Of a DNA stretch of 64,000 bases, positions 1-30,000 are shown piece by piece. Made by a program: the position numbers. The number at the start of each line of letters is the position of its first letter. The stretch's first letter is position 1. The DNA comes from a bacterium (GTDB taxonomy: Bacteria; DUMJ01): positions 540-64,539 of the forward strand of contig JACIXS010000341.1 of NCBI GenBank assembly GCA_014360335.1, read 5' to 3'.

Positions 1-3000
1 CTGCTGTAATTCAACCATTAGAAGAGATTGGTCAATACGGTGGGACTTGGAGGAGGGCATGGCTTGGACCTTCGGATAGCCCAGGACCAGGAAGAATTAC
101 TTATGATAATACTCTTAGATGGGACCTTACAGGAACTAAGATTATGCCTAATGTTGCAAAGAGTTGGAAGATATCTAAGGATGGGAAGACAGTTACTCTG
201 TCTTTAAGAAAGGGGATGAAATGGTCTGACGGTGCACCATTTACAGCGGACGATGTCATTTTCTGGTATGAAGATATAATTTTAAACAAAGAGATAACAC
301 CTACTTTTCCCGTCTGGCTGACTGCTGGAGGAGTTCCTGGAAAGATCAAGAAAGTAGATGATTATACTGTTCAGATTCAATTTGAATATCCCAATGGGTT
401 GATATTAGAGTTCCTTGCAGCAAACTGGATATTTGCTCCAAAGCATTATCTAAAGCAGTTTCATCCAAAGTATACAGACCAAAAGACTCTAGAGGAAGCA
501 TATAAGAAAGCAGGATTCGATGCTTGGTATAAATATTTCCAGAATAGAAATGATTGGATTCAGAATCCAGACTTGCCAACAATAAGGGCATGGAAACCTT
601 CAAATCCGCCTGATTCTAAAGTATGGGTAATGGAGCGTAACCCATATTATTGGAAGATAGATACCGCAGGTAATCAATTGCCTTATATAGATAGGATTAC
701 CCATGAGTTAGTTGCTAATGCTGAAATGGTAACAATGAAGGCTGTAGCGGGCGAGCTGGACATGCAGTTAAGACATATAAACTTTATGGATTATACTTTA
801 CTTAAAGAGAACGAGAAGAAGGGAGACTATAGGGTAATAAGATGGTTACCAGCCCTTGGAGCAGATGTTGGAATATTTATAAATCAAAACCTAAAAGACC
901 AAGTCCTAAAGAAGTTCTTTACTAATCCTAGATTCCGTCAGGCACTCTCAATAGCTATAAATAGAGATGAGATAAATCAGCTTATTTATCATGGTGTGGG
1001 TAAACCAAGAGCTGCCACTGTAATACCACAATCTGTATATTATGATCCGTCTGTAGAGAAACTGTATGCGGAGTATGATCCAGCCAAGGCTAATAAAATC
1101 TTAGATGACCTTGGTCTTAAAAAGAGAGGACCAGATGGATATAGACTTAGGCCGGATGGCAAGACATTTTCCGTAACAATAAATGTAGCTCCAGTTTTTG
1201 GACCTTGGATAGATGTATGTGAAATGGTTAAAGGCTATTGGGAAAAGCTCGGAATAAAGACTGCAGTAAATACTATGGAAAGAGCTTTACTTTACTCAAG
1301 AGCCTATGCTGGAGATTTTGAAATGATGGCTTGGAGTGTAGATAGGTCATCTCAACCTTGGTCTTATCCTTGCTGGTGGGTTCCTATGACTAATGAATGC
1401 TTCTATGCTCCTCTCACTGGAGTATGGTACACTACAGGTGGAAAGGGAGGCGAAGAGCCTACGAGTCCTGAATTGAAGAAGATAATAGAACTATACAACA
1501 AGATGAAAGTTACTACAGATGCAACAGTAAGAACCCGTCTAGCTAAAGAAATTCTACGTCTTCATGCTAAGAACGTCTTTGTTATTGGAACTGTAGGTCT
1601 TGTTCCAAGCACTATGTGTGTAGGGGTGGTAAAGAACTACTTTAAGAATGTCCCAGATGAAACACATGGTGCAGTATCAGACGTAATATTTAACTCTCCT
1701 GGCAATGGCTTCCCAGTGCAATTCTTCATAAAGAAGTAAAAATTTTATAAGGCTGGCATTTGCCAGCCCTTTTTTATTTTATCATTTTGTCCTGAAGTGA
1801 ATACCAGAGGTCTAGAACTTTTTCAGGATTCTCATACCACTCTGGTAAGTCAGAACCAGAAGGCATAAATATTAATCCACATCTCGTTCCTTTCTCGCTA
1901 AATGGTCTTAGTATTCTCTCAAAGTAATCTCTTAATGTCTCAGTTTCCTCTCTTTGGAAGATACCAAAGTAGAACTTTTTATAGTCTAATATTAGATTCA
2001 TAGTGGCATAATAGTCATATCTTTCTGGATTTCCAAAGTTTAATCCTTTTACATCTGGCATAGCTAGGAGGTCTTCTAGAAATTGATGCCCACTACCGCA
2101 GAAGTGTACCCATCCACCATTAAAAGGCTTGAGAGCTTCCGCTATATAAGGAGCAACAAACTCTTTAAATGTCTTTGGAGAGAGTAATGTTGTTGTATCT
2201 TCGCAACATCTTACTCCACCATTTTCCATATAGAGAGGTCCATGATATCCTGAATCTAGTGGTTCTCCTATTACATTCTTGAGCACTTTGGATACGCTTA
2301 TATAGGCATTAGTAGTAATCTTTAGTAGATGATGGATAAACTTGGGATCGTCATATATATCTGTAAAAAGAGTATCTCCATATACAAGATGAGCTATATC
2401 TAAGGGTCCTTGGGTATCAGATAGATATATATTAGCCTTGCCATTTAATTTCTCTTTGAAAAGGTTTATATATTCTATGGCTGTTGGGACAAGTCCCCTA
2501 TTTCTAACATAATCTTCATTGACCTCATCAGGATCTATAGAAAGAATCTGTTCCTTTGTTAGATGGTCTTTTAACCAAGGCATAATATCGTCGAATATTA
2601 TCTGATTAAGACCAAAGATAGAAGCGACAAAACCTGTCCCTAGATTAGCCCTTATAGAGAGCTGAGCATCTCCAGGTAATCTTGCCCTTCCTATCAAATC
2701 CCAAAGATGCATAACTAGCATCTTTTCTGGATCGTAAAACTGCTCTTTGAGATTGTAAGAAGGAAACTTCTCTTTTTCTGGGACATAAACAGGCGGAGGA
2801 ATGATTGGTATATAATCCGGTTCTTCTCCCTTCCATACACTAGCCTGTCTTTTCCTCCCTAACTCTATTCTCTCCAAATCTGGTTGCAGTAGTTCTAATA
2901 CATAATCAAGTTCTGGTAGCATCTCTAGCGCCCCCTTGTATGTTTTTAGAATAGTATATCAGATTCATAGCTATTCTTCTATTAGATTTACCTCTCTTAC

Positions 3001-27000: not shown

Positions 27001-30000
27001 GATTTTAGAAGAGCACTCTCTTTAGCTATAAATAGAGAAGAGATAAATCAGATAGCTTATCTAGGTATGGGTAAACCCAGACAGGCAGCGGTCATCCCTC
27101 AATGCCCTTACTATAAGCCAGAGTATGAGAAGGCTTATGCGGAATATGATCCAGCAAAAGCTAATCAATTGTTAGATAAGATTGGTTTAACAAAGAGAGA
27201 TAAAGATGGATTCAGACTAAGACCAGATGGAAAGACGTTGACGGTAACTATAGAATATGCTCCTCTATTTGGACCTTGGACAGATGTCGTTACAATGGTG
27301 AAGAAATATTGGGAAGCTGTTGGTATAAAGACACTTCTTAAAGAAGAGAGTAGAGACCTGTTTACTACTAGAGCTCAAGCTGGAGAGCTGGATATCGGTA
27401 TATGGACTATGGATAGGTGCTTTACTCCTCTAGTAGAACCACTCTACTGGGTACCTGGTATGCCGAGCGGAACACCTCCTAACAATGCTAACGAGTACCG
27501 GAGATGGTATAGGACTGGCGGTAAAGAGGGAGAGAAGCCACCTGAGGATATTGTAAAAGTATATCAACTCTATGATAAGGCTAAGAGTACTACCAATGAA
27601 ACAGCTAGGACGAACTATGCCCATGAGATTATGAGATTGAATGCTAAGAACCTTTGGGTTATAGGAATAGTTGGTGTATTACCCCAAATAGTAATAGTTA
27701 AGAATAACTTTAGAAATGTTCCAGAAGATGCTATTCAAGACTGGCTACAGCTTACAGAAGGTAACACCTTCCCAGAACAGTATTTCTTTAAGACAAAGTG
27801 ATAATAAAGGGGGGAGAAGCGGCTAGCCCCTCCCCCCTAAGATTTAAAAAGGTGGAGGTATATGACTAGTAGGGAGATTGTAATAAAGAGTTTAGAATTT
27901 GAAGGACCAGAAAGAATACCTATGACCTTGCCACCACCCTATCCTAACGATGTGGTTGGGGTGGGTCTAGGTCCAAACCCTTATGTAAGTGAAGAATGGG
28001 TGTATAAAGGAAATAATAGGTGGGAAAGGATAGATGAGTGGGGAAATACTTGGGCTAGACTTGAAGCTTACTCTAAGGGAGAAGTAGTGAAGGGAGCTAT
28101 AGAAGATTGGAGTCAGCTAGATTCTTATAAATTCCCACCGCTAGACTTAGATTCAAGATATGAGCATGCAAGAAGAATCTTTAAGGAGACGCCAGACAAA
28201 TTCCACATAGGATTTCTTCCAGGTTTTCCATTTAGTATAGCTAGATATCTAAGAAGAATGGATAATTTCTTACTAGATGTAGCTGCAGAGAAGGAAAATG
28301 TTACTAAGTTACTTAAGAATATCGCAGATTTACTTGAGATTGTCATAGAAAAGTTTGCCAAAGCTGGTGCGGATGCTATTATGTTTGCCGAAGATTGGGG
28401 AACACAGGATAGGCTCTTAGTCTCACCTAAATCTTGGAGAGAGTTATTTAAACCTGGCTTTGTTCAACTGTGTAATACCGCTCATAAACTTGGACTTTAT
28501 GTCTTTATGCACTCCTGTGGACATATCTATGAGATAATACCAGACTTGATAGAGGTTGGGATAGATGTCCTTCAGTTTGATCAGCCTGCACTACATGGGG
28601 TAGATAATCTAGCTAGAGACTTTGGTGGTAAGGTCAATTTTTGGTGCCCGGTAGATATTCAACAGATACTTCCTCAGAAAGATGAAAAACTGATAGAAGA
28701 ATTTGCTAAAGAAATGATAGAGAAATTAGGTTGCTTTAACGGTGGATTTATAGCTGGTTACTATCAGTCTAATGAGGCTTTAGGTCTTGACCCTTACTGG
28801 CAAGATGTTGCCTGTAAGGCATTTGTTAAGTATGGAAGTTATATAAAATTAAAGAAGGAGGTATAGAAGGTATGAAGCTTTTAAAGGTTAGTGTTACATT
28901 GATCTTGGTTTTGAGTTTCTTAGTAAGCGTATCTAGTTTAGCTTTCTCTCAGGAGAAGGTTGTTCCTGGAGAGTACTACAACCTCTCGGACTATGAGAAG
29001 CTAACTGGTAAGAAGATTCCCAAATTTAACGAGGCTCCTCAATTAGCAGAACTAGTCAAGCAAGGGAAACTTCCCCCAGTAGAACAGAGGCTACCTAAGA
29101 ATCCTCTAGTAGTAACACCTGTAGAGGAAGTTGGACAGTATGGTGGGACTTGGCGTAGAGCCTGGCTTGGTCTTTCTGACCAGTGGGGTCCAAACAAGAT
29201 CTGTGTTGAACACCTTCTTATGTTTGATAAGGGTGGAACTAAGGTGTTACCAAATATAGCAGAGAGTTGGAAGGTTTCTAAAGACGCCAAGGTCTACACG
29301 TTCAAGATTAGAGAAGGTATAAAATGGTCTGATGGAACTCCTCTTACTACCGAAGATGTAATGTTCTGGTATGAAGACCTCTTATTGAACAAGGACCTTA
29401 CCCCAACAGTTCCTACTTGGCTTACAGCTGGTGGTAAGCCTTGTAAGATAGAAAAAGTAGATACCTATACGTTTAGAGTATCTTTCGAACAGCCAAATCC
29501 GCTATTCCTTATAAATATATGCAAATCTGGAGGAAATGCTTTCTTCTTACCGAAACATTATGGTAAACAGTTCCACATAAAATATGTATCGAAAGATGAA
29601 CTAGAGAAGAAAGCTAAGGATGCAGGATTTCAATTCTGGTATCAGTTATTTGATGCAAAGGTAAGTAACTCTAATGCTTGGCTACAAAATCCAGAGCTTC
29701 CAGTCCTATATCCTTGGAAGAATACTACTCTTCCGACAGCTACTACGATGATCTTCGAAAGAAACCCTTATTACTTTAAGATAGACCCAGTAGGGAATCA
29801 GTTACCTTATATTGATAGAATAGCTCATGCCCTTGTAGAGAATAGAGAAGTGATTACAATGAAAGCTGTCGCTGGAGAGATAGATATGCAGACAAGACAT
29901 ATCAGTCTCCCAGACTATACGCTCCTTATGGAAAATAGGGCTAAAGGTAACTACAGAGTCCTCAGCTGGAAACAAGGTGTAGGCTCTGATGTTATGATAT

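Follow-up and report, generated by a model that had tools for sequence, protein, structure and literature searches.

URO-D-fold subfamilies in mannosidase and solute-binding-protein loci: possible corrinoid-linked sugar demethylases

Three URO-D-fold genes among mannosidase and binding-protein genes

The 64-kb window (the whole stretch of DNA that was analysed), from a heat-loving bacterium, carries three genes for proteins of the uroporphyrinogen decarboxylase (URO-D) fold, which we call A, B and C. A and B lie in a mannosidase operon on the minus strand, and C lies on the plus strand between two solute-binding-protein genes.

1..1739, plus: SBP_bac_5 solute-binding protein, cut by the window start and convergent with A
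1751-1768: hairpin followed by a T-run, between A and the preceding SBP_bac_5 gene
1774..2922, minus: URO-D-fold paralog A, 382 aa, encoded at the end of the mannosidase operon, with motifs VHFCG and NFGNPE
2971..5403, minus: GH38 alpha-mannosidase (Glyco_hydro_38N, Alpha-mann_mid, Glyco_hydro_38C), directly upstream of A
5367..7631, minus: GH2 of beta-mannosidase type (Glyco_hydro_2_N2), downstream of B
7638..8660, minus: URO-D-fold paralog B, 340 aa, with motifs DDWGTQ, HSDGH, FWGEIDRQ and GGVIAQCEW
8692..9783, minus: HGSNAT_cat/DUF5009 polytopic membrane protein (Pfam), upstream of B
9856..10428, minus: PsbP-like protein, N-terminus hydrophobic; its gene probably opens the operon
10481-10454: promoter-like site before the PsbP-like gene
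25822..27801, plus: SBP_bac_5 solute-binding protein, 60 bases upstream of C
27862..28866, plus: URO-D-fold paralog C, 334 aa, with motifs HSCGH and FWCPVDIQ, flanked by two SBP_bac_5 genes
28872..30845, plus: SBP_bac_5 solute-binding protein, 5 bases downstream of C
30946-32373: phosphomannomutase/phosphoglucomutase gene, after the second of these SBP_bac_5 genes

The operon is tight, with the order PsbP-like gene, HGSNAT-like gene, B, GH2 beta-mannosidase, GH38 and A, and the successive gaps are 72, 31, 6, -37 and 48 bases, the negative value being the overlap of the GH2 and GH38 genes. The arrangement of A and its SBP_bac_5 neighbour is found as in the window at L094, L096 and L104. The three ORFs of 334-382 aa are all present, and their neighbours are those named in the preliminary description (B between the HGSNAT-like and GH2 genes, A after GH38, C between two SBP_bac_5 genes). 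We found no corrinoid protein, RACo, homocysteine methyltransferase or haem gene in the 64-kb window, with the haem-gene scan taking in about 30 window ORFs by Pfam or NCBIfam. Hence, the earlier remark that haem and corrinoid genes are missing nearby holds across the window.

Fold, subfamilies and active-site residues

We found that A, B and C all exceed the gathering score of the Pfam URO-D family PF01208 (23.9), with 42.3 bits (E 6e-11), 53.6 bits (E 2e-14) and 67.7 bits (E 1e-18), respectively. The N-terminus is MTSRERVIRALRFENPDRVP in B and MTSREIVIKSLEFEGPERIP in C. The URO-D/MtaA-type fold proposed in the preliminary description is borne out by the Pfam matches of all three and by the predicted models of A and B, which are URO-D-type (beta/alpha)8 barrels nearest to MtaA, with HemE second.

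B and C are 34% identical, and the C clade is sister to B. By BLAST, the similarity of A to B and to C is marginal (E 3e-3 and 2e-4), and A is tied to B/C by profile comparison (hhalign probability 91%). Judged by sequence, A, B and C are non-equivalent paralogs, and A is a separate, smaller subfamily. Hence, the earlier phrase 'three paralogs' stands for membership of one superfamily but not for equivalence.

The B subfamily is very large and highly conserved (more than 7000 sequences), with relatives in other phyla that are 66-76% identical, and C has 2364 homologues, the nearest from a Dictyoglomi MAG (91%). The URO-D-fold subfamilies form 6581 clusters at 50% identity, occur in Chloroflexota, Planctomycetota, Armatimonadota, Bacillota, Verrucomicrobiota, Acidobacteriota and others, and are currently annotated merely as 'methyltransferase' or 'uroporphyrinogen decarboxylase family protein'. 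Conserved polar residues common to B and C are R18, D73, E89, R146, D154, D193, W194, Q197, H232, Q255, D279 and Q281, several Trp are also conserved in both, and these polar and aromatic residues seem to be of the kind found in sugar-binding sites. Conserved carboxylates stand at the ends of strands 4 and 7 (D193 and E277/D279). The D193 motif aligns both with MtaA, where the Asp is kept, and with HemE, where a neighbouring Asp is kept. Hence, D193 is not diagnostic.

We rejected A, B and C as HemE, since both PROSITE URO-D signatures are absent from all three and the matches to the hemE model TIGR01464 are far under the cutoff of 302.95 bits (C scores 19.7 bits; A and B have no match). A regular-expression search for signature 1, P-x-W-[LIVMFY]-M-R-Q-A-G-R, which we take to be PS00906 and to carry the substrate-carboxylate-binding Arg pair, was negative in A, B and C, and QAG occurs nowhere in them; E. 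coli HemE shows PVWMMRQAGR. Hence, the Arg-rich N-terminal substrate motif of HemE is missing, and the three are not hemE copies. At the strand-5 position, HemE has Lys and the window proteins have His. Profile comparison with E. coli HemE by hhalign gave 60% probability for B/C, over the C-terminal half only, and 1% for A. HemE is normally single-copy and in the haem pathway, whereas these 64 kb hold three URO-D copies and no haem gene, with further copies in related contigs. Signatures, TIGR01464, hhalign, paralog number and absent haem genes thus all speak against true uroporphyrinogen-III decarboxylases for tetrapyrrole synthesis, a reading that is refuted at the sequence level and to which we give next to no weight.

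The window proteins are only 15-18% identical to the methylcobamide:coenzyme M methyltransferases MtaA, MtbA and MtsA (PDB 4ay7), and the MtaA/CmuA models of NCBIfam were not passed, with 30-56 bits against cutoffs of 235-600 (235-244 for TIGR01463 and NF004889). In a weak phmmer match of C to MtaA 4ay7, HSC of C aligns with HIC of MtaA; HFC of A falls at the same position through the A1/A2 profile comparison, and B has HSD there. The residue aligned with the zinc Cys of MtaA is Asp in window B and D, K, A, S, H, P, R or E across the family, and C314 of B likewise varies within the family. From these alignments, B appears to lack a conserved MtaA-type zinc site, and the His-x-Cys part of the MtaA zinc ligands raised in the preliminary description, which further include a distal Cys, has a putative counterpart in C and A and a variable third residue in B. 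The genomic context of A, B and C, glycan catabolism, is also unlike that of MtaA, MtbA and MtsA, and we know of no coenzyme M synthesis in bacteria of this kind.

Sugar-related and corrinoid genes beside the relatives

We found GH38 genes no more than four genes from B relatives at 8 of the 80 species loci (Bacillota, Acidobacteriota, Chloroflexota, Lentisphaerota and KSB1), and at L003 the B-family gene overlaps the GH38 start. Distant A relatives at L139 and L150 stand in consecutive order with GH38 and a 288-aa protein (GH38, 288-aa protein, A), and GH2 of beta-mannosidase type adjoins C relatives in two of six loci (L091 and L173). Acyl_transf_3 membrane proteins adjoin A-family genes at L148, L150 and L154, and Dictyoglomi-like contigs carry more URO-D paralogs, which adjoin GH42 and GH4. 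The carbohydrate context is genuine: it is found again in other phyla, as are the glycoside hydrolase neighbours from which the preliminary description had proposed a glycan-locus function.

Other neighbours include GFO_IDH_MocA, AP_endonuc_2, sulfatase, MR_MLE, DHDPS and TRAP genes, and the genes directly beside B-family members are highly varied (131 Pfam families for 129 neighbours). URO-D paralogs adjoin many glycoside hydrolase families, which would be odd if each removed a rare methyl decoration.

Corrinoid parts recur beside relatives of B and A in other genomes. At L027 (Planctomycetota; 62% identity to B), the B-family gene, a corrinoid protein gene (PF02607 + PF02310) and an S-methyl_trans gene form a row with overlapping ORFs; at L085 (Aminicenantes), a corrinoid protein gene runs into a B-family gene with a 4-base overlap; and L089 (Opitutae), a locus with seven URO-D ORFs, has a corrinoid protein, DUF1638, RACo and a B-family gene. 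These B-family members keep 16, 15 and 16 of the 16 B signature residues, respectively. In the A family, RACo overlaps the gene start at L110 and is clustered with IclR, DHDPS, the A-family gene and a TRAP transporter at L132 and L142, the latter cluster additionally holding S-methyl_trans and an FGGY kinase. At L141, the A-family gene is 8.6 kb away from one for a corrinoid protein, and S-methyl_trans genes lie near A-family genes at L142, L153 and L158. No corrinoid protein was found within about 8 kb at 77 of the 80 B-family loci or at any of the six C-family loci, and about 90 kb of Dictyoglomi-like contigs yielded no corrinoid protein, RACo or S-methyl_trans. The corrinoid and RACo genes beside B- and A-family relatives point to the known corrinoid methyl-transfer role, probably on a new substrate class. 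Hence, the earlier statement that neither known role of the fold explains the context no longer fits.

Possible function

A, B and C most likely belong to the methyl-transfer branch of the URO-D superfamily. The reading that we prefer, tentatively and with rather less than even confidence, is that they are methyltransferases linked to corrinoids and act on a substrate derived from carbohydrate, such as O-methyl sugars. Within the methyltransferase part of the URO-D (UroD) superfamily, they would make up three uncharacterised subfamilies of cytoplasmic enzymes, each binding a substrate freed by the neighbouring transporters and mannosidases. The most plausible substrate would be a methylated sugar or sugar acid, for instance O-methylated mannose. 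Its methyl group would pass to Co(I) of a corrinoid carrier whose gene would lie elsewhere in the genome and then to an acceptor such as homocysteine, and the demethylated sugar would enter normal catabolism. Of the two guesses made earlier, the evidence seems to favour an O-methyl-sugar demethylase over a cofactor-independent decarboxylase.

Small decorations, methyl ethers among them, block the action of glycoside hydrolases, and the role of these enzymes may possibly be the oxygen-free removal of methyl groups from sugars. They would then do anaerobically what the P450 sugar demethylases do with oxygen; no other sugar demethylases are known to us. In marine bacteria, cytochrome P450 O-demethylases of 6-O-methyl-D-galactose lie in glycan-utilisation loci and have the same proposed role, removal of a methyl ether that blocks sugar catabolism (PMC6292453). 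Their fold is unrelated to URO-D and their mechanism is oxygen-dependent. P450 chemistry requires oxygen, and Dictyoglomi and most phyla found here are known as anaerobes. We found in the full-text literature no report of a sugar-demethylating corrinoid methyltransferase, nor of the present association.

HemE aside, the characterised UroD superfamily members named in PMC10418091 and PMC13222342 are all corrinoid methyltransferases, namely CoM methyltransferases, the O-demethylases MtvB, OdmB, VdmB and MtoB and the haloalkane enzymes CdmB and CmuA, and zinc is dispensable in CdmB and the Moorella O-demethylase. The MT I enzymes among them (MtvB/OdmB/VdmB/MtoB and the chloromethane enzyme CdmB), some of which do not require zinc (PMC13222342), fall into the same superfamily as A, B and C; with Co(I) they break a C-O or C-halogen bond. 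Their partners are a corrinoid protein, an activase (RACo/RACE) and a second methyltransferase, and such parts stand beside B- or A-family genes at L027, L085, L089, L110 and L142. The likeness is one of superfamily and gene context; the known MT I substrates are methoxylated aromatics or haloalkanes and no sugars, and the known MT I systems are usually complete clusters, whereas the window has no partner gene. Type 1 mlp clusters (Kountz and Balskus 2023, PMC10418091) hold widespread uncharacterised UroD-superfamily paralogs of non-methanogens in multi-copy loci with a corrinoid protein and RACE activase, and L089 looks similar. By definition, an mlp cluster has Mlp2, Mlp3, a corrinoid protein and an activase, and these clusters are linked to sulfur/selenium genes (PMC10418091), whereas the isolated URO-D genes in the mannosidase and binding-protein operons of the window fall outside that definition.

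Corrinoid-linked demethylation of sugars has evidence against it, in that corrinoid parts are absent from the window, the Dictyoglomi-like contigs, most B loci and all C loci, B appears to have no conserved zinc site and its gene neighbours are heterogeneous. In addition, an alkyl methyl ether is chemically harder to cleave than an aryl ether. The lack of corrinoid parts in the window, the related Dictyoglomi contigs and about 90% of related loci would suit a less probable explanation, that the three are cofactor-independent carbohydrate-active enzymes on the URO-D barrel, acting directly on manno-oligosaccharides or their decorations through Asp/Glu/His at the barrel mouth, for example as hydrolase, isomerase/epimerase, de-esterase or decarboxylase. 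Consistent with this are the repeated tight embedding in glycoside hydrolase and transporter operons, the company of the GFO_IDH_MocA, AP_endonuc_2, sulfatase, MR_MLE, DHDPS and TRAP genes, the loss of the Cys ligands of the MtaA zinc site in the B clade and the carboxylates conserved at the ends of strands 4 and 7; HemE, which works cofactor-free, proves that the fold can run such a reaction. However, no particular chemistry is positively supported, D193 does not discriminate, and the corrinoid-protein or RACo genes that abut or overlap B- or A-family genes in at least six loci of different phyla are hard to explain in this way. If no corrinoid is used, a third chemistry would be added to a classic fold.

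A broader proposal, also doubtful, is that these three subfamilies, with their thousands of sequences from more than a dozen phyla, are an unrecognised, mannosidase-tied class of carbohydrate-processing enzymes, either the anaerobic sugar O-demethylases that have long been missing or enzymes without a dedicated corrinoid protein whose reaction is new to the fold. If their reaction were assigned, a missing piece of anaerobic glycan degradation would be supplied and thousands of metagenome genes would be better annotated, and the proteins are a possible source of thermostable glycan-processing enzymes.

It is unlikely that A, B and C are corrinoid-linked methyltransferases of a non-sugar substrate (a methyl-sulfur compound or a donor for homocysteine methylation) whose glycan position reflects co-regulation or gene shuffling. 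The L027 row of B, corrinoid protein and homocysteine S-methyltransferase does resemble a split methionine-synthase-like system, the S-methyl_trans genes near A-family genes (L142, L153 and L158) agree with this, related mlp clusters are tied to methyl-sulfur/methyl-selenide metabolism (PMC10418091), and the high identity of B across phyla, together with its very mixed neighbours, would suit a common metabolite. However, the B-GH38 association reaches across five phyla or more, where a rough estimate puts the chance expectation well below one locus, there is translational coupling with GH38 and sugar ABC permeases, and mannosidase association extends to all three URO-D subfamilies. In Anaerolineae, B stands beside aspartate kinase and a Cys/Met PLP enzyme, but these methionine-pathway neighbours are on the opposite strand and in a single lineage.

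Gene layout around the three URO-D ORFs

Open reading frame (ORF) listing and translation placed three URO-D ORFs, here called A, B and C, where the preliminary description had them, and all three exceed the Pfam PF01208 gathering score of 23.9. The neighbours it had named (HGSNAT-like, GH2, GH38 and SBP_bac_5) also match the Pfam calls.

Features around A, B and C
1751-1768: hairpin then T-run, after A
1774-2922, minus: A, 382 aa; PF01208 URO-D, 42.3 bits
2971-5403, minus: GH38 (Pfam)
5367-7631, minus: GH2, β-mannosidase type (Pfam)
7638-8660, minus: B, 340 aa, begins MTSRERVIRALRFENPDRVP; PF01208 URO-D, 53.6 bits
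8692-9783, minus: HGSNAT_cat/DUF5009 membrane protein (Pfam)
10481-10454: promoter-like site, upstream of the six-gene minus-strand operon
25822-27801, plus: SBP_bac_5 (Pfam), ends 60 bases before C
27862-28866, plus: C, 334 aa, begins MTSREIVIKSLEFEGPERIP; PF01208 URO-D, 67.7 bits
28872-30845, plus: SBP_bac_5 (Pfam), starts 5 bases after C and is followed by a phosphomannomutase/phosphoglucomutase gene

On the minus strand, the order is PsbP-like, HGSNAT-like, B, GH2, GH38 and A, with gaps of 72, 31, 6, -37 and 48 bases, and these six genes form one tight operon. The PsbP-like protein (9856-10428, minus), which has a hydrophobic N-terminus and comes first in this mannosidase operon, is unusual to see alongside glycoside hydrolases. 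Further sugar-related genes in the window include galT, galK, an AP_endonuc_2 gene, an IclR regulator and, together with a GFO/IDH/MocA oxidoreductase, a LacZ-type GH2.

Besides the two solute-binding proteins flanking C, the 64 kb holds two more SBP_bac_5 paralogs, at 1-1739 (plus, cut by the window start) and 43367-45349 (minus). No Opp/Dpp-type permease or ATPase genes adjoin any of the four in the window, and its sole ABC transporter (18229-21228), an AAA_assoc_C ATPase with a fused double permease, is of a different type. SBP_bac_5 proteins of Thermotoga are known to bind oligosaccharides. By analogy, those of the window are probably oligosaccharide binders, since each adjoins sugar enzymes. 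Downstream of the fourth paralog, a short GFO_IDH_MocA-like gene and two tandem Amidohydro_2 genes (40916-43302, minus) may be another candidate sugar-processing module; the Amidohydro_2 family has lactonases and non-oxidative decarboxylases among its members. Next to a 6-phosphogluconate-dehydrogenase-like gene (46635-47546) lies a DUF362 protein (45513-46619, minus) into which a 2x[4Fe-4S] ferredoxin domain is inserted.

Fold, active-site residues and family size

Over almost their full length, B and C share 34% identity, and A is barely detectable from either with BLAST; with hhalign, A matches the B/C profile over the C-terminal 170 columns (91% probability). Structure models, covering A and B, are confident (AlphaFold pLDDT 96.5 for A and 95.9 for B).

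Structure comparison of the models of A and B (two scores per entry, one for each model)
MtaA (methylcobamide:coenzyme M methyltransferase, PDB 4ay7): 25.8 / 22.8
Uroporphyrinogen decarboxylases: 23.9 / 19.6-21.1
Cobalamin-independent methionine synthases: 13.0-15.6 / 11.5-12.4

Generic TIM barrels rank after these. With MtaA and then the uroporphyrinogen decarboxylases on top, the models establish the URO-D fold for A and B, as had been proposed. Among PDB sequences, B has no match, A has chance-level matches only and C matches MtaA weakly; the B/C profile reaches MtaA only.

Identity with HemE (uroporphyrinogen-III decarboxylase) was rejected for all three. A, B and C carry neither PROSITE URO-D signature, nor do they have the Arg-rich MRQAGR motif near the N-terminus. 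The hemE model TIGR01464 scores C only, with 19.7 bits against a cutoff of 303, and hhalign aligns Escherichia coli HemE with the B/C profile over the C-terminal half only (60% probability) and fails for A.

Nor are the three canonical MtaA: matches to the MtaA, CmuA and MtbA models are partial, at 30-56 bits against cutoffs of 235-600. At the MtaA zinc site, the zinc-binding H-x-C aligns with HSC in C and, through the A1/A2 profile comparison, with HFC in A. B has HSD there, but its third residue differs among the 80 B-family genes (D, K, A, S, H, P, R or E), and C314 is variable too. Hence B, judged from its relatives' sequences, lacks a conserved MtaA-type thiolate site. Zinc is dispensable for some superfamily enzymes, as CdmB and a Moorella O-demethylase work without it (PMC13222342). 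A clan GH-A-like hydrolase, with carboxylates on strands 4 and 7, was also considered and set aside because the strand-4 motif aligns with MtaA and HemE too.

The B family has more than 7383 matches, the best 120 of which are all at least 66% identical to B and come from Bacillota, Chloroflexota, Armatimonadota, Latescibacteria and Hydrogenedentes; an identical protein is present on an NCBI metagenome-assembled genome (MAG) contig. Clustered at 50%, matches with E up to 1e-3 fall into 6581 clusters and those with E up to 1e-30 into 440. C has 2364 matches (the nearest, at 91%, in a Dictyoglomi MAG), and A only 214, in Omnitrophica, Planctomycetes, Caldiserica, Bacillota and others. Invariant polar or aromatic residues common to B and C are R18, D73, E89, R146, D154, D193, W194, Q197, H232, Q255, D279 and Q281; A conserves its own set (D85, R91, D191, K215, E220, D242, H273, C275, N295, Y318 and W373).

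Among the best B matches, identity is 66-76% between Dictyoglomi and the five phyla listed for B, an unusually high value for phyla so far apart, which may reflect strong constraint, horizontal transfer or a combination of the two. In some genomes, diverged URO-D ORFs stand in dense arrays: eight in 17 kb of a Chloroflexia MAG (L075; L numbers denote contig loci fetched around relatives of A, B or C), seven in an Opitutae MAG (L089), and four or five each in Lentisphaerae, Armatimonadota and Oscillospiraceae MAGs (L067, L012 and L021).

Glycan genes beside URO-D relatives in other genomes

Relatives of B were sampled at 80 species-level loci, all from MAGs of more than 12 phyla, with genes called using a codon-position GC filter. 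Those of A were sampled at 80 metagenome loci, 36 of them longer than 8 kb, and those of C at six loci.

Gene families near B-family genes (loci with the family within four genes)
Another URO-D paralog: 17
GH38: 8
AraC-type or response regulators: 8
MR_MLE: 6
Sulfatase: 5
SBP_bac_1 / permease: 5
GFO_IDH_MocA: 4
GH116: 3

Gene families in A-family loci (loci)
GFO_IDH_MocA: 8
GH38: 7
DHDPS-family genes: 7
AraC: 7
IclR: 5
TRAP transporter parts: 4
Sulfatases: 4
Acyl_transf_3: 3

The B-family loci with GH38 lie in Bacillota, Acidobacteriota, Chloroflexota, Lentisphaerota and KSB1. GH38 is directly adjacent in two, and in one locus (L003: AraC, SBP1, two permeases, URO-D, GH38) the URO-D gene overlaps the GH38 start. 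By a rough estimate that assumes 1-3 GH38 genes among several thousand per genome and eight neighbour positions, chance would place GH38 near a B-family gene in fewer than one locus in 80. The immediate neighbours are very mixed, with 131 Pfam families among 129 proteins and no dominant partner; hence B has no single conserved operon.

In three A-family loci with GH38 (L139, L147 and L150), the A relatives are only 37-38% identical to A. For the C family, one locus carries two GH20 genes, GH29, the C-family gene, an esterase and a GH2 of β-mannosidase type (L091), another the C-family gene followed by such a GH2, with GH39 and GFO (L173), and a third a URO-D tandem pair (L175). Dictyoglomi-like contigs preserve the window layout with variations: B, SBP1, two permeases, GH2, ROK, GH38, A (L096); a URO-D paralog, GH42, GH2, ROK, GH38, A (L094); and a URO-D paralog then GH4 (L104). 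Three separate URO-D subfamilies therefore show a real and recurrent association with glycan catabolism, especially with mannosidases. The repeated carbohydrate context first noticed in the window thus extends to other genomes, with GH38 near the A and B families and β-mannosidase-type GH2 near the C family.

A conserved protein of about 280 aa without a Pfam match lies directly upstream of A-family genes (L139:6832-7698, L150:9091-9957, L147:588-1493 and L008:177-1010), between GH38 and the A-family gene in L139 and L150, and is absent from the window. Polytopic membrane proteins also adjoin URO-D paralogs: HGSNAT_cat in the window (8692-9783) and Acyl_transf_3 in L148:1082-2227, L150:11159-12304 and L154. 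These two Pfam families are related; phmmer with the window HGSNAT_cat protein found no match in the L148, L150 and L154 loci. At L090:17170-21005, a URO-D paralog of 341 aa is part of an arrangement typical for sialic-acid catabolism, a single row made up of a TRAP transporter, the URO-D gene, BNR_2 (sialidase-like), an alpha/beta hydrolase and a DHDPS-family gene.

A full-text literature search turned up no paper that describes URO-D-family genes within glycan loci, and the nearest published work is that on mlp clusters and CdmB. The fold is known and the chemistry probably so; the context is new, and the substrate class is probably new as well. These families are huge and unannotated, and they bear on how anaerobes handle decorated sugars.

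Corrinoid partners and the proposed activity

Pfam and NCBIfam scans found no haem, corrinoid, RACo (corrinoid activase) or homocysteine-methyltransferase gene in the 64-kb window, which bears out the earlier statement that haem and corrinoid genes are absent near the three URO-D genes. In other genomes, corrinoid proteins were detected by motif scan and then Pfam (B12-binding_2 plus B12-binding), and they adjoin B-family genes in three phyla. The Planctomycetota locus L027 has B (62% identical to the window's B), a corrinoid protein and S-methyl_trans (homocysteine S-methyltransferase family) as overlapping ORFs. In Aminicenantes (L085), a corrinoid protein precedes B with a 4-base overlap, and in Opitutae (L089) the order is corrinoid protein, DUF1638, RACo, B, in a locus that contains six more URO-D ORFs. 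These relatives keep 16/16, 15/16 and 16/16 of the B signature residues, respectively. Near A-family genes, a RACo with Fer2, RACo middle and ASKHA domains overlaps the gene start in L110. The L142 cluster comprises S-methyl_trans, a full RACo, an FGGY kinase, IclR, two DHDPS genes, A, a TRAP transporter and another URO-D, and so joins a sugar-acid catabolic cluster with corrinoid parts; a similar cluster also has RACo (L132), and in L141 the A-family gene and a corrinoid protein are 8.6 kb apart. Searches of the window and the Dictyoglomi-like contigs with a profile of four corrinoid proteins, and by phmmer with RACo, DUF1638 and S-methyl_trans, gave no match.

That corrinoid-protein and RACo genes adjoin or overlap B- and A-family genes in several phyla is specific and, in our view, unlikely to be due to chance. 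HemE aside, the characterised superfamily members named in PMC10418091 and PMC13222342 all transfer methyl to or from a corrinoid. We therefore assign A, B and C to the methyltransferase branch of the superfamily. That they repeatedly lie in operons with mannosidases, sugar transporters or sugar-acid genes points to a substrate derived from carbohydrate, and the most economical proposal is that they would demethylate an O-methylated sugar without oxygen. Against this proposal, partner genes are missing in the window and in about nine in ten loci, B lacks a conserved metal site, alkyl methyl ether cleavage is chemically difficult, and the glycoside hydrolases that adjoin the paralogs belong to many different families. 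A serious alternative to the demethylation of O-methylated sugars is that the URO-D barrel converts sugars without a corrinoid.

Weaker than the corrinoid-free rival is a methyltransferase that serves methionine or sulfur metabolism and has no connection with sugars. The L027 row looks like a split methionine-synthase-like system with the URO-D barrel replacing the pterin-binding module. The methionine-pathway neighbours of B in Anaerolineae weigh little because all come from a single lineage and are encoded on the opposite strand. In L027, a MAG contig, this row (8001-10601) is directly downstream of a transketolase gene. In the Anaerolineae loci (L054, L062, L063, L065 and L068), the B-family gene adjoins an aspartate kinase (AA_kinase plus ACT), followed in 4/5 by a Cys/Met PLP enzyme, both on the opposite strand; this may tie B to the methionine pathway in this lineage in particular.
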